DNA of 64,000 bases from assembly GCA_038065955.1 (NCBI GenBank), contig JBBTPY010000003.1:39624-103623 (forward strand). Direction: 5' to 3'. The notes below the pieces were generated by a model, which was given only the letters and a program-made list of their open reading frames with translations, ran no database searches and was not told the DNA's origin. Shown here in pieces: positions 15,745 through 60,441 of the stretch. Source of the stretch: Patescibacteria group bacterium. GTDB lineage: Bacteria > Patescibacteriota > Minisyncoccia > UBA6257 > UBA9933. A program made the position numbers and the translations under genes. Numbering within the stretch: the stretch's first letter is position 1; each line of letters opens with the position of its first letter.

Positions 15745-17565
15745 TTATAGTTTGTAAATAAATATGGAAGTTCCCGCTTTATAATCCGGTTCATAAGGAT
15801 TTTTTATTTCTTTCAGCCATTGATATTCGTCTTCGGGATTTCGCTGTTGGCCCGGGTGAAGTTTGCCTAAAGCGCCTTGCAGATTGTTTATTGAAATCGC
15901 CAGCCATTCAATATTATAATCTTTCGGATTGCCTTTTGACGATTGCCACTGTTCAAACTTATCGTTTAAATAATATTTCGGACTGCCGCCGCCGAAATAA
16001 TCAATGGCAATTTTATTAATTTTTTCGCCGGCGGGCGGATTTTCAACAAAATTTTTAAGCCGTTTCAAATCTTGCCCCCAATCGTAATTGGAATCAGTTA
16101 CGTATTTATAGCCGTTTTCAACGCCGCCGCTAATTTGGTTAAAGTAAGAAAGATAATAAGGAGCGCTTAAAAATGTTTCCGCTAAATACCAGATTATCAA
16201 AATAGCGATAACGGCAGATTTAAATATGACTTTTGAATTATAGTTTATCCATTTTTTGAGCGCTGAAGCGGCGAGAATATAAATAAACGGCATTGTTGGC
16301 ATTAAGTGTCTAATGCCGATGTTAAGCGGGCTTTTAATGCTGTAAAGCCAGTAGAAAATCGCGAATGACAGCATTGAAAATTCGGCAAAATGGTTGCCGA
16401 GATAGTCCATAAAAGTTTGTAGTTTGTAGTTTGTGGTTTGTAGTTTTCTGATAATACCCCAAACGCTTAAAAAAAGCGCGATAAAAATTAGAATTAACGA
16501 TGGAACGGGTTCTTTTAAAATAAAAACAATTGGGAAATAATACCACCAGCCGCCGGCCGACACTTCGCCTAAGAAATATCCGGTGTTTCCGCCGGAAGAG
16601 CGTTGAAGCACCATTAAAACTCCTAAAAGATATTGGCCGAGCGGCCTTAAAATTTTATTTCCGGCCATCCAGATATTTATTTCCGCCGGAGCGCCGGAAA
16701 AAGAAGTTAAAATAAATTTTGTGTCGGCGACTTGTTTTTCAATCGGATAATTTATAGTAAATAAAAAATAAATCGCATAGATTAAAATATAACCGATAAT
16801 AAAGATGGCTGAAATTGATTTAAAATAGCGCAGTCCTCGGATGGAAAATCGTTTTAATCGCGCCGAAGGAGCGGTTTGTCGCCAGTCGTGATAGATTTTC
16901 CATATTAAAAAAACAGTAATTAAAAATATAAAAAATGGAATAAGTAAAAAGGCGGAAAATTTCATCGACTGGGCGATGCCGAAAGCCAATCCAGCGAATA
17001 TTAAATGCCGGCGCGACTGTCCAAAAAGGAATTTTACGAAATAATAAGTGGCGATAAATATTCCTAAAGCCGCGCCAATGTCTGTGGTTACATAATGACC
17101 GTGAGTCAAGACTGTCGGCGAAAAAGCGAATAAAAATGTCGGAAATAATGCCCACCAGCGGCCAATCAGTTCTTTTGACCAGATATAAATGAAAATTATT
17201 AAAATTAACGTAAGGAGCATCGGGCCGAGCCGCGACCATTGAATGATTGTGTCGGCATTATTGCCTGATTCGTAAAGAAATTGCGCGCCGGCGGCCCATT
17301 GGCCGTTGATATCCGTTTGCCAAGGCGATTTGTCGGTTGGAAAGTTTAATTTTTGAAATAACAGCGGAAAAGCGGCTAAAGCTTTTACTAATGGCGGATG
17401 TTCGGGGTTTAAGCGAAAATCCAGGTATTTGACATAACCATAGCCGGCCGGAATATGGGCAAGCTCATCCATTGTGGCGGACTCTTGAAAAGACGCATTA
17501 AGCATTAAAGCAAATGAAACGGCGGCGATTAAATAAAGAAACAATAAAGAAAGATGTTTAGACAT
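15745..17565 (-). CDS. GT-C superfamily membrane glycosyltransferase (GT39/PMT/ArnT-like)
   Basis: 606 aa polytopic protein with DE motif in the first loop (ATMDELAH); internal AGTTTGT x5 tract. Confidence 0.7.
   Translation of the reverse strand: MSKHLSLLFLYLIAAVSFALMLNASFQESATMDELAHIPAGYGYVKYLDFRLNPEHPPLVKALAAFPLLFQKLNFPTDKSPWQTDINGQWAAGAQFLYESGNNADTIIQWSRLGPMLLTLILIIFIYIWSKELIGRWWALFPTFLFAFSPTVLTHGHYVTTDIGAALGIFIATYYFVKFLFGQSRRHLIFAGLAFGIAQSMKFSAFLLIPFFIFLITVFLIWKIYHDWRQTAPSARLKRFSIRGLRYFKSISAIFIIGYILIYAIYFLFTINYPIEKQVADTKFILTSFSGAPAEINIWMAGNKILRPLGQYLLGVLMVLQRSSGGNTGYFLGEVSAGGWWYYFPIVFILKEPVPSLILIFIALFLSVWGIIRKLQTTNYKLQTFMDYLGNHFAEFSMLSFAIFYWLYSIKSPLNIGIRHLMPTMPFIYILAASALKKWINYNSKVIFKSAVIAILIIWYLAETFLSAPYYLSYFNQISGGVENGYKYVTDSNYDWGQDLKRLKNFVENPPAGEKINKIAIDYFGGGSPKYYLNDKFEQWQSSKGNPKDYNIEWLAISINNLQGALGKLHPGQQRNPEDEYQWLKEIKNPYEPDYKAGTSIFIYKL
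16414..16448. repeat. heptamer tandem repeat AGTTTGT x5 inside the GT-C gene
   Basis: agtttgt agtttgt agtttgt ggtttgt agttttc. Confidence 0.9.
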
Positions 17566-17588
17566 ATAAATTCGTATATAATTATAAT

Positions 17589-17951
17589 ATGTTTTTTATC
17601 CATAAATCCAGCGCAAAAATTCATTGGACAAATCATGTTAAAATAAAGATGCGATTTTATAAATTATCCGAGCAAAGAGTAAGGCGGATTTTAAATTCTC
17701 CGAAAAGAACGGAAGAAGGAATAGCGCCGAATACCGTGGCGCTTATGCAGGTTGCCGGCAGTGAAAAACATCCGTACGAAATTTGGGTAATGCTTCAAAA
17801 AATAAATCAGAAATCAGACATCAAGAGTCAGATGTTAAAAGTGATAAGCGCCTGGAAATATCCCGGCAGAACTAAACCTCGCGGCGAAATTGCGTTTAAT
17901 TTTATTCAGCAAGAATTTGCCGAATATAAAAATGAAGAAAAATCCGTTTAA
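17589..17951 (+). CDS. hypothetical protein
   Basis: 120-aa ORF; no motif recognised. Confidence 0.4.
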   Translation: MFFIHKSSAKIHWTNHVKIKMRFYKLSEQRVRRILNSPKRTEEGIAPNTVALMQVAGSEKHPYEIWVMLQKINQKSDIKSQMLKVISAWKYPGRTKPRGEIAFNFIQQEFAEYKNEEKSV

Positions 17952-17965
17952 CGGTTTAACGACGG

Positions 17966-18214
17966 TCAGGCGGCTTTTTTCATTTCTTCATATTCTTCTC
18001 TAAGAGGAATACTGCCGTCCGGCGACATTTTTTTCCCTAAAATTTTCGGCCATTGCGGGACATAAGGCTCTTTTTTGTCTTTTAGCTTTTCGTCTTCGTT
18101 TTTTTCACGGCTCTCACAACTTTCACAGCTTTCGCCCTTATCCATTTCCTCGCTTTCTTTTTTAATTTTTTTCGTTGACTGGGAATTTAAAAAATCAGAT
18201 ATTTTTTCAAACAT
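17966..18214 (-). CDS. hypothetical small acidic protein
   Basis: 82-aa ORF convergent with the previous gene; CESCES motif. Confidence 0.35.
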   Translation of the reverse strand: MFEKISDFLNSQSTKKIKKESEEMDKGESCESCESREKNEDEKLKDKKEPYVPQWPKILGKKMSPDGSIPLREEYEEMKKAA

Positions 18215-18302
18215 TGGAATTTTTATATTTTAAATATTTTTTATAATTAAACGACCTTTATTTTTAAAAATTATACTATAAAAATAAATAGAAATATATG
18301 GT

Positions 18303-18344
18303 CTTACTAAACCATTCTGACGGCCGTCAGAATGGTTTAGTAAG
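18303..18344. repeat. perfect 42-bp palindrome (cttactaaaccattctgacgg|ccgtcagaatggtttagtaag)
   Basis: read directly; in a divergent intergenic region. Confidence 0.9.
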
Positions 18345-18399
18345 TTAGTAAGATTAGAAGAAGATTATAAAATATATCGTCGAATAAATTATATCATAT

Positions 18400-18441
18400 C
18401 AATTTCGGTTATTTCAACGATCGTTGAAATAACCGAAATTG
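18400..18441. repeat. second perfect 42-bp palindrome (caatttcggttatttcaacga|tcgttgaaataaccgaaattg)
   Basis: read directly; 55 bp downstream of the first palindrome. Confidence 0.9.
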
Positions 18442-18697
18442 GCTGAAACATTAAATGTTCTCCTATAAAATTAATAAATGATTATACTATTTTAAAAACC
18501 GAATCTCACAAAACCGCTCACGATTGACAAATATAAAGAAAGTATGTTATTTTTAAAAATCATTTATATGTCTGTTTTTCGGTTTATTCCAACATTAACT
18601 CGGCCCGCTTAAATTTCTGCAATAAGGCAGGATAAAAAGCGACGCCACAATCGCCTCCGCTAATTTAATTAGCGGTTGGCAAAAAGGAGGACTTGTT

Positions 18698-19228
18698 ATG
18701 AAAGACGCACCACTTCCGCTGCTTCTTAAGCCTGTGGGTACCATTTATATACCTGCGACTATCGAAAAATTTGTGGTTCGGGAAAAGTTTGTGGTTCGGG
18801 AAAAGTTTGTGGTCAACACCAGCAGTAAATACGCGAAAATTTCTTATATTGGATATCTTTTTTCGAAATGGTTTCTCAATAAAATTGAGGAACCGAAGCC
18901 GGAAACGCATCTCCAGTATGCTGATTTACTGAGAGCGTCTTCGGGTAATCATATTCTCGCCGAGCTTGGCGAGAAAAAAGAAACAACCCTTGCCGAAATC
19001 TTTGATTTGATGATAATCCAACCGACTGGCGAGGACGACGTGTTGTTCACTAATGATTATAATAATAATATTTTTTGTGTCCGCGATGTTAATAATGAGC
19101 TTCGTGGTGTGAGAGTTTGGAATGTTTGGAATAATGACAGTTGGAGTAGAAGTATTAGTTGGCGTGTAGGCGCGTTTTTAGTTAATAATATGTGGCCTGA
19201 TGGTATCCGCGTCTTCTCTCGTGGTTAA
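18698..19228 (+). CDS. hypothetical protein with tandem KFVVRE repeats
   Basis: 176-aa ORF with a strong SD (aaaggagga) 8 nt upstream; internal 18-bp tandem repeat; higher GC than its neighbours. Confidence 0.5.
   Translation: MKDAPLPLLLKPVGTIYIPATIEKFVVREKFVVREKFVVNTSSKYAKISYIGYLFSKWFLNKIEEPKPETHLQYADLLRASSGNHILAELGEKKETTLAEIFDLMIIQPTGEDDVLFTNDYNNNIFCVRDVNNELRGVRVWNVWNNDSWSRSISWRVGAFLVNNMWPDGIRVFSRG
18770..18814 (+). repeat. 18-bp tandem repeat (tttgtggttcgggaaaag) x2.5
   Basis: direct reading; encodes (E)KFVVRE repeats. Confidence 0.9.
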
Positions 19229-19248
19229 TAAAACACTTAAATCTCTTA

Positions 19249-19287
19249 GCTCCTTGGTTCGGTTATTTCCGAACCAAGGAGCTTTTT
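19249..19287 (+). terminator. rho-independent terminator
   Basis: gctccttggttcggttatttccgaaccaaggagc followed by TTTTT. Confidence 0.8.
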
Positions 19288-19395
19288 ATTTATAATAATT
19301 TTTAGTCATTTACTCGCATGTGCGAGTAAATGACTAAAATGACTAAAAAGTTGTTTTCTTAAATTTTCTTAAAATTTAAAATAGCGGCAATAATT

Positions 19396-19404
19396 TGGTA
19401 TAAT
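19396..19404 (+). promoter_or_regulatory. extended -10 promoter element (TGgTATAAT) upstream of ychF
   Basis: tggtataat about 90 nt upstream of the ychF ATG. Confidence 0.35.
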
Positions 19405-19495
19405 TTCTTTAAAAGATTGCTAAAAAATATAAATTTCAATATGGATAATTTGATTAAAAACTGAAATTAAAATAAGATATTACGAAACTTTCAAA

Positions 19496-20506
19496 ATGAA
19501 ATTATCAATCGGCATCGTGGGTTTGCCCAATGTTGGCAAATCAATGCTTTTTAAAATTTTAACCAAACAGGATATCAATATCGCCAATTATCCCTTCGCC
19601 ACTATTGACCCGAATGTCGGGATTGTTTCTGTTCCGGACGAACGGTTGGACAAACTGACGAAATTAAGCGCTTCAAAAAAAATCGTTTCGGCCATCGTGG
19701 AATTTTACGACATCGCCGGCTTGGTCAAGGGCGCGAACAAGGGCGAAGGTTTGGGAAATAAGTTTTTGTCGCACATCCGCGAAACAAATGCCATTGTCCA
19801 TATTGTCCGCTGTTTTAAAGACCCCGAAATTATCCATGTGGAAACGGAAGTCAATCCGTTGAGAGATTTGGAAATTATCAATACGGAGCTGATTTTGAAA
19901 GATTTGGAAACGGTTGAAAAGCGGCTTGTTAGTATAGAAAAAGAAGCCAGAGGAGACAAGAAAAAAATAAAGGATTTGGAAATTCTTAAAAAAGTTCGGG
20001 AGAATTTAAGCAACGGTATTTTGGTTTTTAACTGCGGCGAGGAAATCGCCAATGAGTCTGTGATAAAAGAATTAAATCTTTTAACCGCTAAACCGCAAAT
20101 TTATCTTTTAAATGGCGAGTCCAGAGACGTAAGCGAAGAATTGAAAAACAAGATAAAATTTTTGAATGCAGATTATTTAATCATTAATCTCTCGGCGGTC
20201 GACGCCGCTGTCATCGGAGAGTTGATAAAAAAATCTTACGAAATTTTGGGATTAATCAGTTTTTTCACGACCGGCGAAGACGAAACAAAAGCGTGGACGA
20301 TTAAAAATGGCGCCAAAGCGCCGCAAGCAGCCGGCGAGATTCATACCGATTTTGAAAAGAAATTCATCAAAGCAGAAGTTATTAATTGGCAAAAATTAAT
20401 TGAAGCCGGTTTTTGGGCAAGCGCCAAACAAAAAGGTTTGGTTCGTTTAGAGGGTAAAGAATATATTGTCCAAGACGGCGATGTAATGATTATTAAACAT
20501 GGTTAA
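19496..20506 (+). CDS. ychF: ribosome-binding ATPase YchF (Obg-family GTPase)
   Basis: G1 motif GIVGLPNVGKS; TGS C-terminal domain. Confidence 0.9.
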   Translation: MKLSIGIVGLPNVGKSMLFKILTKQDINIANYPFATIDPNVGIVSVPDERLDKLTKLSASKKIVSAIVEFYDIAGLVKGANKGEGLGNKFLSHIRETNAIVHIVRCFKDPEIIHVETEVNPLRDLEIINTELILKDLETVEKRLVSIEKEARGDKKKIKDLEILKKVRENLSNGILVFNCGEEIANESVIKELNLLTAKPQIYLLNGESRDVSEELKNKIKFLNADYLIINLSAVDAAVIGELIKKSYEILGLISFFTTGEDETKAWTIKNGAKAPQAAGEIHTDFEKKFIKAEVINWQKLIEAGFWASAKQKGLVRLEGKEYIVQDGDVMIIKHG

Positions 20507-23870: not shown

Positions 23871-26255
23871 ATGGAATTTTATTTAATTTTATCAATACCG
23901 CTTACTATTGCCGTCGCCGGCGTTATTTCTTTTTTTATTTTAAAAATTGCGCGCCGCCGGCGCTTGTCAGACGCTCTTAATTTGAAACTTCTTTTAATCC
24001 GTTTGCCGCAAAAAAGCCAAAAAGATTTTTCCGCCGAAGGCGGACCAGCCTCTGACTGGAAAGACGAACTTAATCTTTCGGCTCAATTGTTTGGAATTTT
24101 AGCAAGTTTGAAATCGCCGTTCGGATTTGAAGCCGGAGTTCATCATATTGGCGAAGAAATTCATTTTTACGCGGCCGTGCCGAGAGAATCAATTGAATTT
24201 GTCTGTCGGCAAATAGAAGGTTTATGGAAAGAAGCGCAAGTGGAGCCGGTTGACGATTATAATATCTTTAATCCGGCCGGCAATTCGTCCGGAATTTATT
24301 TGAGGCAAAAATTTTCTTACGCTTTGCCGATAAGGACTTACGCCGAGGCTAACATTGACACTTTCAGCCCTATTTTAAGCGGGCTTTCAAAAATAAGCGA
24401 GGCCGGCGAAGGCGCGGCGATTCAGATATTAGTCAGGCCGGCGCCGGCATCGGCAAAAAAATCCGTTGTGCAAATAATTGAAAATTTAAAAAAAGGCGGC
24501 AAATTGGAAAATGTTTTGAAAGGCGGCGATTTTAAAATCAACTTAAAAGACATTCAAAAAGCCATAAATCCGGAAAAAGAAGAAGAAAAAAAGGAAAAAA
24601 TAATTGACGAGGAAGCGATTAAAGCTTTGGAATCAAAAATTTCCAAGCCGTTATTATCGGCGAATGTCAGGGTTTTCGTTTCGGCTCAGAATCAGCTTCA
24701 GGCGGACGCGATTTTAGAAAGCATTGCCGGCGGTTTTTCGCAGTTTGGCGCGCCGAAAAGGCAGGAATTAAAAATTATCAAGCCGCGCGATATTAAAAAA
24801 CTCGTTTATCAATTTTCTTTTCGCGAGTTTGACGATAATCAGGCGATAATTTTAAACACCGAGGAATTGGCTTCAATATTTCATTTGCCGGCTTTTTCCA
24901 GCGACGTGCCGAAAATAAACTGGCTTAAATCCAAAGAAGCGGCCGCGCCGACCAATTTGCCGAAATCCGGCACGCTTATCGGCAAAACTTCTTTTCGCGG
25001 CCAGAGCCAGCCGGTTTATATTGCCGAAGACGACCGGCGCCGCCATATTTACATTATCGGCCAGACCGGCACCGGCAAAACGACATTAATCGCCAATATG
25101 GCGGTTGAAGACATCAGAAACGGCAAGGGAGTTTCCATTATTGACCCGCACGGCGAATTAATTGAAAAAATATTAGGGCAAATACCAAAAGAACGGATTG
25201 ACGATGTGATTGTTTTTGACCCGGGAGATTTATTAAGGCCGCTTGGGATGAATATGTTGGAGTATGATATTGATAAGCCGGAACAGAAAACTTTTATCGT
25301 TAACGAATTGTTTAATATTCTGGATAAACTTTACGATATGAAGACCGTCGGCGGGCCGATGTTTGAACAATATATGAAAAACGCCATATTGCTTTTAATG
25401 GAAGATATGGCGAATGAGCCCGCGACTTTAATGGAATTACAGAAATTGTTCACGGACAATGATTACCGTAATCGCAAACTTGCCAGAATTAAGAATCCGG
25501 TGGTGATTGATTTTTGGGAAAAAGAAGCGGCCAAAGCCACCGGTGATTGGTCGTTGGCCAATATGGGCCTGTATGTTAATTCAAAATTTAACAATTTCAC
25601 CGCCAATGATTATATGCGGCCGATTATCGGCCAGCCAAAATCCGCTTTTAATTTTCGCCAAGCGATGGATGAGGGAAAAATTTTATTGATTAATTTATCC
25701 AAAGGCAAAATAGGGGACTTAAACGCCAATCTGTTGGGCCTGGTGATTGTCGGGAAAATTTTAATGGCCGCGTTGAGCCGCGTTGATATCATTGATGAAT
25801 ATCGGCGCCGCGATTTCTATCTTTATATCGACGAGTTTCAGAATTTCGCCACGGATTCAATTTCAACTATTTTGTCGGAAGCGAGAAAATATCGCTTGAA
25901 TTTAACTATGGCGCATCAGTTTATCGCCCAATTGACGGAAAAAATCAGAGACGCGGTTTTCGGAAACGTCGGCGCGATTATTTCTTTAAGAGTCGGCGCG
26001 ACGGACGCCGAGTTTTTGGTCAAACAATTTGAACCGGTTTTTAATGAAAATGATTTGATTAATATAGACAATTTTAACGCTTACGCGAAAATTTTGATAA
26101 ACGGTCAGACGGCTAAGCCGTTTAACATAAAAATTATTCCGCCCGAACGAAGCGGCGGGGAATTAGCCGTTCAAATAAAAGAAATTTCCCGCCTTAAATA
26201 CGGCCGCGACCGGCAGGAAGTAGAAGAAGAAATTTTGAAAAGGTTGCGCCAATAG
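23871..26255 (+). CDS. membrane-anchored T4SS coupling-protein-like ATPase (VirD4/TraD/DUF87 HerA-FtsK superfamily)
   Basis: N-terminal TM; Walker A (IIGQTGTGKTT); Walker B (LYIDEFQNF); 794 aa. Confidence 0.7.
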   Translation: MEFYLILSIPLTIAVAGVISFFILKIARRRRLSDALNLKLLLIRLPQKSQKDFSAEGGPASDWKDELNLSAQLFGILASLKSPFGFEAGVHHIGEEIHFYAAVPRESIEFVCRQIEGLWKEAQVEPVDDYNIFNPAGNSSGIYLRQKFSYALPIRTYAEANIDTFSPILSGLSKISEAGEGAAIQILVRPAPASAKKSVVQIIENLKKGGKLENVLKGGDFKINLKDIQKAINPEKEEEKKEKIIDEEAIKALESKISKPLLSANVRVFVSAQNQLQADAILESIAGGFSQFGAPKRQELKIIKPRDIKKLVYQFSFREFDDNQAIILNTEELASIFHLPAFSSDVPKINWLKSKEAAAPTNLPKSGTLIGKTSFRGQSQPVYIAEDDRRRHIYIIGQTGTGKTTLIANMAVEDIRNGKGVSIIDPHGELIEKILGQIPKERIDDVIVFDPGDLLRPLGMNMLEYDIDKPEQKTFIVNELFNILDKLYDMKTVGGPMFEQYMKNAILLLMEDMANEPATLMELQKLFTDNDYRNRKLARIKNPVVIDFWEKEAAKATGDWSLANMGLYVNSKFNNFTANDYMRPIIGQPKSAFNFRQAMDEGKILLINLSKGKIGDLNANLLGLVIVGKILMAALSRVDIIDEYRRRDFYLYIDEFQNFATDSISTILSEARKYRLNLTMAHQFIAQLTEKIRDAVFGNVGAIISLRVGATDAEFLVKQFEPVFNENDLINIDNFNAYAKILINGQTAKPFNIKIIPPERSGGELAVQIKEISRLKYGRDRQEVEEEILKRLRQ

Positions 26256-26399: not shown

Positions 26400-26424
26400 G
26401 TGGGACGCGCTTCGCGCGTCCCAC
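26400..26424 (+). terminator. GC-rich hairpin downstream of tRNA-Thr
   Basis: gtgggacgcgc-ttc-gcgcgtcccac; weak T-tract follows. Confidence 0.5.
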
Positions 26425-57369: not shown

Positions 57370-57427
57370 AATTTAAGCGTCAAATATCGGCTGTTTATTT
57401 TTTATAATATTATTATATAATAATATT

Positions 57428-58657
57428 ATGCCGCTGTATAGTTATAAAGCCGTTGATAAAAATGGTTCGCCGACATCGGGAGAAATTTTGGCGGACAGCC
57501 GCGAAGAAGCGGTGGAAAATCTTTCGCGCGACGGATTATTGCCGATTATCGTTGAAGAAAAATCCGTCGGCAAGCTTTCGCAGTTTTCCGATTTGGCGCA
57601 ATTTTTTCCGTTTTTTCAGAAAATCGGCGCCATTGACAAAATTCTCTTAACCCGTTATTTGGCCGCGATTTTGAAAGCCGGCATCGGGTTGGCGGAAGCT
57701 TTGGAAATTATTTTAAACGACGCGAAAAAACCTTTGATTAGAAAAATTCTTCTGGAAATTAAAGCCGGCGTGGAAAGAGGGGAACCGCTTTCATCAATGT
57801 TCGCCGATTATCCGCGATATTTTTCCCCGATTTTTGTCGGGATGATAAAAGCCGGCGAACTTTCGGGCAGTTTGGAAAGCGCTCTGGAAAATCTTTCCGG
57901 CCAATTAATAAGGGATTACGACTTGTTAAAAAGGGTGAGAATGGCGATGATTTATCCGCTGATTCTTTTAATCGGTTCCGCCGGCATTATCGTGCTGATG
58001 ATGACTTTTGTTTTGCCGCGGATGGCGAAAGCTTTCAAAGGCATGCTCGCCGAATTGCCCCTGATTACGAGATTTTTTATCGCTTTAAGCGATTATTTAA
58101 GCAGAAGCCCGATTTTAACGATTTCCGTTTTTTTTATTTTAATCGCCGCGGGCTTTTATTTTTCCCGTTCGGTTTTCGGCAAAAAAATCATTTTCCGCGT
58201 TTTTGAAAAATTGCCGGTCGCTTCGGAACTTGTCAAGAAATTGGCACTGGCGCGTTTCAGCCGAACTTTCAAAAATCTTTTGGGAAGCGGCGTTTCGGCT
58301 ATTGAAGCGATTGAAATGAGCGCTTTAACGGTCGGCAATCCGACTTATCAGAAGTCGTTTTTGAATATTATGGAAGAATTAAAAAAGGGGTCAAATTTTT
58401 CCGCGGTTTTCAAATCGCGTCCCGCTCTTTACCCGAGTTTTTTTGCCAATATCATCGCCATCGGCGAACGAACCGGCACTTTGGAAAAATCGCTGGAAAC
58501 TTTAAGCGCGTTTTACGAAGAAGAAGTGGACGGACTTTTGAAAAATCTGGTTTCGCTTTTGGAACCGCTGCTGATTTTTGCAATGGGTATAATTGTGGCA
58601 ATGGTGGCTTTGTCCGTGCTTTTGCCGATATTCCGAATGGTCAGAATGTTTCAGTGA
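57428..58657 (+). CDS. pilC: type IV pilus/T2SS platform protein PilC (GspF family)
   Basis: 409 aa; duplicated GspF domains; 3 TM. Confidence 0.85.
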   Translation: MPLYSYKAVDKNGSPTSGEILADSREEAVENLSRDGLLPIIVEEKSVGKLSQFSDLAQFFPFFQKIGAIDKILLTRYLAAILKAGIGLAEALEIILNDAKKPLIRKILLEIKAGVERGEPLSSMFADYPRYFSPIFVGMIKAGELSGSLESALENLSGQLIRDYDLLKRVRMAMIYPLILLIGSAGIIVLMMTFVLPRMAKAFKGMLAELPLITRFFIALSDYLSRSPILTISVFFILIAAGFYFSRSVFGKKIIFRVFEKLPVASELVKKLALARFSRTFKNLLGSGVSAIEAIEMSALTVGNPTYQKSFLNIMEELKKGSNFSAVFKSRPALYPSFFANIIAIGERTGTLEKSLETLSAFYEEEVDGLLKNLVSLLEPLLIFAMGIIVAMVALSVLLPIFRMVRMFQ

Positions 58658-60276: not shown

Positions 60277-60292
60277 TGAGCTTGTCGAAGTG

Positions 60293-60363
60293 CTGCGGGA
60301 CTTGGATTCGAACCAAGATAGATGCCTTCAAAGGGCACAGTCCTACCGTTAGACGATCCCGCA
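60293..60363 (-). tRNA. tRNA-Gln (anticodon TTG), U1-A72, G73, no encoded CCA
   Basis: reverse complement folds as acceptor TGCGGGA/TCCCGCA, anticodon stem GTGCC/GGCAT with loop CTTTGAA, T arm CTTGG-TTCGAAT-CCAAG. Confidence 0.8.
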
Positions 60364-60368
60364 AAAAT

Positions 60369-60396
60369 AAATACCGACTAGTGATAGTCGGTATTT
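60369..60396. terminator. bidirectional hairpin terminator
   Basis: aaataccgacta-gtga-tagtcggtattt flanked by A-runs and T-runs. Confidence 0.7.
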
Positions 60397-60441
60397 ATTT
60401 TACTCGTTTTTTTATATTCCGTAAATCCCTAACACCATATT

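Follow-up and report, generated by a model that had tools for sequence, protein, structure and literature searches.

A probable orphan and fossil target cassette of a diversity-generating retroelement inserted in a promoter region of a Patescibacteria genome

We analyzed a 64,000-nt stretch of a Patescibacteria group bacterium genome (contig JBBTPY010000003.1, assembly GCA_038065955.1), hereafter the window, with the focus on the region 18215-19495 between a small divergent host gene and ychF; all coordinates are positions of the window, and L-numbers denote the related loci or contigs used for comparison. We found that the 176-aa open reading frame (ORF) of this region is, by sequence comparison, a homologue of the variable (target) protein of a diversity-generating retroelement (DGR), from a family limited to Patescibacteria. 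Overall, the locus is probably an orphan, fossil DGR target cassette that was inserted in a promoter region of a Wolfebacteria-like Patescibacteria genome. A known system accounts for the locus, and the DGR identity is ordinary for Patescibacteria. A first-pass annotation had singled out the region for its palindromes and for an ORF of possibly foreign origin. It missed both the homology of the ORF to DGR variable proteins and the fact that a conserved leader RNA accounts for the palindrome at 18657-18675.

The ORF is located at 18698-19228 on the plus strand and is preceded by the Shine-Dalgarno (SD) sequence AAAGGAGGA, as had been noted before. The homologue search proposed by the first-pass annotation returned a DGR target family with 26 protein homologues and 42 + 80 related loci, nearly all from Patescibacteria where the title names the organism (some titles of metagenome-assembled genomes read otherwise). 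The window protein aligns across the entire family domain. The C-terminal ~45 residues of the family consist of an invariant scaffold (W, G, RVFSRNS) interleaved with hypervariable positions, and one homologue has Asn at every hypervariable position. Moreover, 33-35 loci carry an ungapped second copy of the 3' end of the gene elsewhere in the locus, mostly ~350 nt downstream. Thirty of these pairs of a variable region (VR) and a template repeat (TR) are 108-129 nt long and 79-90% identical, with 508 of 555 mismatches on TR adenines. A reverse transcriptase was detected in at least 26 related loci (tblastn). In L025, a promoter and leader are followed by the target gene, a hairpin, the template repeat and a reverse transcriptase of 344 aa with the YADD motif (L025 VR, VDVCWFDDGWDVDAF; L025 TR, VNVNWNDDGWNVNAN). 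Since relatives combine adenine-specific VR/TR pairs with downstream reverse transcriptases, the family can be assigned to the variable protein of a Patescibacteria DGR lineage. In the complete relatives, the TR and the reverse transcriptase just downstream would replace the last ~40 codons of the gene, the VR, with adenine-mutagenized cDNA.

Sequence profiles of Pfam, NCBIfam, PHROG and PDB gave no match for the ORF, and a Foldseek comparison of its AlphaFold model (pLDDT 86) with PDB and BFVD gave no fold match. No match was found in phage genomes by tblastn, and no paralogue in the window. A divergent C-type lectin may be considered a candidate fold for the family. The family resembles the DGRs of the candidate phyla radiation (CPR; clade 2, Roux et al. 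2021, PMC8144416; CPR set UVR1-6, Wu et al. 2018, PMC5758913) in phylum, in groundwater source and in having targets without a recognizable domain, which is how CPR DGR targets have been published (PMC8144416; PMC5758913). It differs from them in that the window copy is a truncated stand-alone derivative and in that the family was not mapped to a named UVR class.

The VR-equivalent region of the window copy, as aligned with the VR/TR pairs of L014 and L060, spans 19094-19228 (from ELRGV to RVFSRG-stop). Compared to canonical VR/TR pairs, it contains two insertions and a diverged 3' end, RVFSRG-stop and not RVFSRNS. No TR-like second copy of 19041-19300 was found in the 64-kb window, tblastn with the L025 reverse transcriptase gave only E > 0.5, and no reverse-transcriptase-like ORF with Y[AVILMC]DD is present there. 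An identical protein is encoded on 23 contigs from many Hainich groundwater samples, and strain variants L001 and L056 have the same VR as the window; at the contig level, no VR diversification within populations was seen across these sequences. The closest homologue, encoded by L106, is 58% identical to the window protein. Relative to it, the window protein lacks the N-terminal ~55-aa domain of the family, and the junction reads MKDA-PLP-LLLKP in the window versus MKDA + 58 aa + LLKP in L106. Taken together, the absence of TR and reverse transcriptase from the 64 kb, the N-terminal deletion and the indel-bearing, invariant VR argue for a frozen orphan target. Most likely, the window copy would be merely transcribed and translated.

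Such a state is not restricted to the window. Among the 76 loci that have at least 1.2 kb of downstream flank, 43 lack a TR. L106 has no TR either, and its gene carries a frameshift at a C-run (L106:1985-2015) between the N-terminal and conserved domains, which is either a pseudogene mutation or a sequencing error. Shortened remnants of the reverse transcriptase are present in L014 (3791-4306), L012 (1461-1619), L013 (1451-1573), L042 (3721-3846) and L129 (688-846). The related loci thus form a decay series that runs from complete DGRs through truncated reverse transcriptases to TR-less orphans. Within the window lineage, the start codon of the ORF reads ATA in variant L056 (window 18700). The internal 18-bp tandem repeat pointed out by the first-pass annotation lies at 18764-18799, encodes FVVREK and is strain-variable, with one unit fewer in L001.

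Two claims had been made for a foreign gene, and they fared differently. The proposed odd composition was not borne out: GC and GC3 (GC at third codon positions) of the ORF are 0.409 and 0.401, whereas 40 long window ORFs average 0.406 and 0.413, and it is only its AT-rich flanks (0.27-0.30 GC) that the ORF exceeds in GC. The suggestion that the gene was acquired is, in turn, supported by the comparison with syntenic relatives that had been proposed as a check. At this site the window has 1281 nt versus 8-96 nt in five related genomes (L136-L140). In L137-L140, the distance from the small divergent gene to ychF is 58-96 nt, and in L136, ychF begins 8 nt after a same-strand gene of 107 aa. Genomes with the closest YchF (80-85% identity) share the gene order seryl-tRNA synthetase (SerRS), a PMT-family gene, a small plus-strand gene, the small divergent gene and ychF. 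In the window, the small divergent gene (82 aa, 17966-18214, minus strand), whose homologues occupy the same position in L137-L140, is followed on its right by a conserved motif, AACGACCTTTATT, with its last base at 18263; on the right, the promoter of ychF (19496-20506, plus strand) has its -10 element at 19399-19404, within GGTATAAT at 19397-19404. The near-empty site in relatives therefore defines ~18264-19380 as an insertion of ~1.1 kb, either end of which is placed to within about 20-30 nt. A short divergent promoter region would thus have received ~1.1 kb of foreign DNA. No target-site duplication is recognizable at the insert. It contains no transposase, and its sole ORF of at least 50 aa without heavy overlap is the DGR-target homologue. 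Between the window and L056, compared over 16698-20401, there are 4 single-nucleotide differences in the 1281 nt of 18215-19495 versus 22 in 2423 nt of flanks.

The intergenic region between the small gene and ychF also carries the motif (A)ACGACCTTTA (window 18250-18263) in all of the relatives L137-L140. Some 4.4 kb downstream of the insert lies a 794-aa gene (~23871-26255 in the annotation of L002) with DUF8128, DUF87 and T4SS-DNA_transf domains, a VirD4/TraG-like ATPase, whose position is kept in L137 and L138.

A second instance of the insertion is provided by L106, another Wolfebacteria-like genome, in which the cassette is found between recG and fba. These genes are 1192 nt apart in L106 and 42 nt apart in its relatives L141 and L142; L106 thus represents an independent second insertion, of ~1.14 kb. 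DNA homology between the window and L106 is confined to 18524-19297, from the first base of the -35 element TTGACAAATAT to the T-run of the terminator (~19297), and the common block includes TTGACAAATAT...AAAATCATTTATATG. Upstream parts of the two inserts share k-mers no more than shuffled controls do. The homology limits indicate that the shared unit consists of promoter, leader, gene and terminator. The insert core would then be a self-contained unit made of a sigma-70-type promoter, a structured leader RNA, the gene and its terminator. Synteny with L035, suggested by a similar position on its contig, was rejected because the neighboring genes differ.

The cassette promoter was found by a promoter scan at 18524-18553 on the plus strand (TTGACA, 18-nt spacer, TATTTT), and its -35 element is where the homology to L106 begins. 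It is followed at 18598-18697 by a structured 5' leader, recognized by conservation, covariation and folding, that comprises a module, an SD-proximal hairpin and the SD. The module GGCCCGCT...GCGACGCC covers 18602-18646. The SD-proximal hairpin has the arms CCGCTAAT/ATTAGCGG (18657-18675) and accounts for the short palindrome ccgctaatttaattagcgg reported by the first-pass annotation. The leader is conserved in L106, L024, L067, L009 and L078. In the module, 98.5% of alignment cells are paired and compensatory changes occur at five pairs (e.g. GGC/GCC to GAC/GTC); the fold of the window leader has a z-score of -3.2. In many complete DGR loci, the 5' leader includes an extra hairpin of ~90 nt, with 15 of 21 pairs covarying and with G.U pairs (alignments A6 and A7), which follows a strong TTGACA/TATAAT promoter (e.g. 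L023:2686-2779, L025:2694-2777 and L051:2695-2789). A covariance model of this hairpin, R1, matches ~35 of 99 loci searched on the coding strand and scores far higher on that strand; it has no match in the window. Searched against Rfam 15 with gathering as well as E-value thresholds, the window and another 20 loci related to it yielded tRNAs only, plus tmRNA in L009, and the leader regions gave only sub-threshold matches to generic hairpins; neither leader element is in Rfam. We found no earlier description, in the literature consulted or in Rfam, of a leader RNA with covarying pairs ahead of DGR target genes in Patescibacteria. In L108 (59-213; tcctagagctaagctcttggaa-t-ttccaagagcttagctctagga), L073 (1692-1799) and L050 (616-772), the apical loop of the extra leader hairpin itself contains perfect palindromes of 21-45 bp. 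Hence, palindromic insertions seem to recur in these genomes.

Downstream of the gene, 20 nt past the stop codon, the plus strand contains a hairpin followed directly by a T-run (19248-19291): a G+C-rich 15-bp stem with 9 G-C pairs and a 6-nt loop (19248-19283), then TTTTATTTAT, which makes it a rho-independent terminator on the coding strand. As previously noticed, it shares the 12-mer TTCGGTTATTTC with the second long palindrome of the region. The same hairpin was found in ~80 related loci, 4-76 nt past the stop, with the consensus TTGACCCTCGGTYTGC-TTCG-GCRGAYTGGGGGTCAA and Ts after it; the hairpins of L106, L014 and L059 are nearest to that of the window. Both the G.U pairs and the UUCG loops point to a terminator that acts as RNA, on the coding strand. 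An inverted repeat soon after the VR, here at 19248-19283, is also a feature of DGR targets: retrohoming of the DGR of Bordetella phage BPP-1 requires a hairpin/cruciform just downstream of the VR, at a distance of 4-34 bp, in which a GC stem of 7-10 bp carries a GRNA loop (PMC3240598). By analogy, the post-VR hairpin may double as a DGR target mark in active elements. To this extent the earlier proposal of hairpin or cruciform recognition sites holds, the terminator being family-conserved and resembling the BPP-1 element (PMC3240598), whereas IS200/IS605 ends, also proposed, received no support. The family is further similar to the BPP-1 mtd target (Guo et al. 2011, PMC3240598) in its C-terminal VR, in the adenine-specific TR/VR differences of relatives, in the inverted repeat that follows the gene by 4-76 nt (by 20 nt in the window), and in the TR and reverse transcriptase that lie downstream in complete relatives. 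However, the window copy lacks both TR and reverse transcriptase and has a static VR, an avd gene is not evident in L025, and in place of the short GC stems and GRNA loops of phage DGR hairpins the family has 12-20-bp stems, mostly UUCG loops, G.U pairs and a T-run. For this post-VR terminator hairpin, conserved in sequence, neither Rfam nor the literature consulted provided an earlier description.

The most conspicuous part of the region is a set of long palindromes, which we denote P1, P2 and P4. The two perfect 42-bp palindromes described earlier are indeed present: P1 at 18303-18344, with a GGCC center, and P2 at 18400-18441, with a CGATCG center, each formed by 21+21 nt with 100% complementarity and no spacer. 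P4, known from the first-pass annotation at 19306-19337, turned out to be larger, a near-perfect 40-bp palindrome at 19300-19339 with 19-nt arms (19300-19318 and 19321-19339) around TG. In variant L056 its center is CG (window 19319), so that a perfect 40-bp palindrome results. A shorter palindrome, aacattaaatgtt, lies at 18447-18459, as claimed. The last 8 nt of P1 (TTAGTAAG) are tandemly repeated at 18345-18352 and the last 9 nt of P4 (ATGACTAAA) at 19337-19345, so that both share the layout rc(X)-core-X-X, where rc(X) is the reverse complement of X and X is TTAGTAAG in P1 and ATGACTAAA in P4. Each arm of P2 holds the 12-mer TTCGGTTATTTC and a -35-like hexamer TTGAAA. In fact, a consensus promoter match on the minus strand (18417->18388; TTGAAA-18-TATAAT with an upstream TG, 11/12) has its -35 within P2 and would read via P1 toward the small gene. 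All three palindromes are within the insert and outside the 18524-19297 block: P2 ends 82 nt upstream of the -35 element, and P4 begins 3 nt past the end of the L106 homology. They are mutually unrelated in sequence. The heptamer TTAGT[AC]A found at the ends of P1 and P4 was judged not significant after palindromic and tandem copies had been discounted.

Palindromes of this length had been called too long to arise by chance, and our estimate agrees: a perfect 21-bp arm is expected ~3e-8 times per 64 kb (per-base match probability ~0.26). Of seven perfect stems of at least 11 bp in the window, four are in this 1 kb. Other long perfect hairpins of the window, at 57404-57429, 60364-60401 and 26400-26424, comprise a 26-bp A/T-only palindrome, a 17-bp stem abutting tRNA-Gln (60292-60363, minus strand) and a GC-rich 11-bp stem 35 nt past tRNA-Thr. 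The palindromes are not terminators of the rho-independent type, as no T-run immediately follows the stems of P1, P2 or P4 (stem tails: P1, TTAGTAAG / ACCATATA; P2, GCTGAAAC / ATATGATA; P4, TGACTAAA / ATTATTAT); in a lax terminator scan, P4 passed on the minus strand and was the only one of the three to do so. P2 was also considered as a relic of another post-VR hairpin, which was rejected because its similarity to the terminator stops at the shared 12-mer (p ~0.02).

As to the origin of P1, P2 and P4, we tentatively suggest fold-back or template-switch copying, possibly with a side role as cruciforms or barriers, although we would not call this origin probable. Template switching at quasipalindromes is a mutagenic process in which fold-back copying perfects or creates inverted repeats; it is known mainly for point mutations and small changes at existing quasipalindromes. 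P1, P2 and P4 would stem from such copying in the poorly constrained AT-rich flanks of the cassette. They are like the known process in that the symmetry is perfect through the center and in that they are in non-coding AT-rich DNA beside short tandem repeats, a possible microhomology for switching back; P1 and P4 each adjoin such a repeat. They are unlike it in that palindromes of 40-42 bp would have formed de novo. Any role of the three palindromes would be limited to that of cruciforms, or of transcription barriers that separate the strong cassette promoter from its neighbors. A 20-bp perfect palindrome, AAACTTATTTAAATAAGTTT, is located between the ychF promoter and start codon of the closest relative (L140:~205-224); AT-rich palindromes hence occur at the empty site too.

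Alternatively, P1, P2 and P4 could be selected hairpins, i.e. cruciform insulators, transcription barriers without U-tracts or operators, that shield the small divergent gene and ychF from the cassette promoter or control the minus-strand promoter overlapping P2. We regard this as possible but rather unlikely. In its favor, four palindromes, different from those of the window, occupy the corresponding place in the L106 insert, and in palindrome coverage of the 300 nt upstream of the promoter the window ranks second and L106 third of 76 loci. The 11/12 minus-strand promoter match with its extended -10 and its -35 in P2, with P1 downstream of it, is consistent with a regulatory role, and the symmetry is preserved across strains that differ by 0.7%. 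However, under one substitution would be expected in 84 nt, which makes the strain comparison too sparse to show constraint. Moreover, the stems are not followed by U-tracts, neither the sequence nor the number of palindromes is conserved between the window and L106, and no candidate binding protein is evident.

One could also expect the ORF to be an active remote DGR target, with TR and reverse transcriptase elsewhere in the ~0.7-Mb genome and the post-VR hairpin used for targeting. Non-adjacent DGR targets are documented (PMC5758913; PMC8144416), a nearby TR is missing from the same 43 of 76 related loci, and both the intact ORF and the hairpin are kept in the window. Known remote targets (Treponema and other Lineage 4 elements, PMC5758913) are likewise far from any reverse transcriptase, but they match their TR except at adenines and vary over time, whereas here the VR is invariant and no TR is known. 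The identity of the VR in 23 contigs and two strain variants, its indels relative to all canonical VR/TR pairs, the divergence of the 3' end equivalent to the initiation of mutagenic homing (IMH) site, the lack of TR and reverse transcriptase in 64 kb, and the TR-less, frameshifted state of the closest homologue L106 together render this explanation improbable.

Still more doubtful is a non-autonomous mobile element of ~1.1 kb, with P1 (left) and P4 (right) as subterminal hairpins that a trans-acting recombinase would recognize in their folded form; this enzyme could be an HUH transposase of the IS200/IS605 type or an integrase like those of integrons. P1 and P4 are similar in size and are ~39 and ~41 nt from the estimated junctions, two independent insertions alike in size and layout went into short promoter regions, and both inserts have palindrome clusters. 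In this, the locus resembles the subterminal hairpins of IS200/IS605 and of repetitive extragenic palindromes (REP) with their associated transposases (RAYT), as well as miniature inverted-repeat transposable elements (MITEs), all of which place hairpin-forming sequences near the ends. In contrast to those elements, the palindromes here are single-copy, perfect without bulged bases, and unrelated between P1 and P4, and there are no terminal inverted repeats or target-site duplications. An IS200/IS605-type element is not supported, as the insert has no TnpA (Y1 HUH) or TnpB gene and the arms of P1 and P4 show no relationship; among the ORFs of the insert there is no transposase or integrase, although no dedicated integrase search was made. 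The idea of a family of IS ends or MITEs, raised by the first-pass annotation, is likewise not supported, as P1, P2 and P4 lie outside the block common to both insertions, and no further copies were found in the 64-kb window or in ~634 kb of related loci, nor exact 24-mers of the P1 and P2 cores in viral contigs. In addition, a palindrome at the right end is missing from L106, and the palindromes that it does have are unlike those found in the window.

An integron attC site looks unlikely as well. Such sites are imperfect palindromes with extrahelical bases and a GTTRRRY core, found beside an intI/attI platform; by eye, the hairpins here are perfect and have no GTTRRRY core. A bolder proposal is that promoter-to-terminator DGR target cassettes may move alone in Patescibacteria, without TR or reverse transcriptase, by a hairpin-dependent insertion aimed at short promoter regions, with the upstream palindrome clusters and the downstream P4 as recognition sites or footprints; as a smaller addition, the covarying leader RNA would be a new cis-regulator of DGR expression. 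We consider this improbable on the present comparison.

Chance or assembly error as the source of the palindromes is negligible: contigs from short reads do break inside P2 and the terminator, but, besides the very low expectation given above, assemblies made independently from different samples contain the same sequences (L002-L007 at 98.8-100% and L056 at 99.3% identity), including contigs of 133 kb and 695 kb, and the palindromes are hence real.

Several points weigh against reading the locus as a fossil orphan whose palindromes are by-products of mutation. The search for TR and reverse transcriptase spans 64 kb of a ~0.7-Mb genome, so that a remote pair is possible. The ORF is intact and host-like in composition and may thus still be functional and selected. 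The position of palindrome clusters, the same in two independent insertions, suggests that they are not mere accidents. The 12-mer common to P2 and the terminator, hardly a chance match (p ~0.02), hints at a relationship between the two. Finally, with a 15-bp stem and a 6-nt loop here and UUCG in most relatives, as opposed to the GRNA loops of phages, a role of the post-VR hairpin in retrohoming is only an analogy.

The palindromes have a practical consequence, as perfect palindromes of 40-42 bp break short-read assemblies at this locus. L006 starts at window position 18402 and L007 at 18427, both inside P2, and L005 ends at ~19267, in the loop of the terminator; of the 25 index blocks in which this protein is listed, 13 contain only contigs under 2 kb. 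Long perfect palindromes thus explain the fragmentation of short-read assemblies here. For the biology of these genomes, three features of the locus are worth attention, namely the relocating promoter-to-terminator unit, the leader RNA and the unexplained perfect palindromes. The two independent insertions indicate that the target's own transcription unit can relocate, and the locus offers a clean natural example of DGR target genes that outlive their retroelement.

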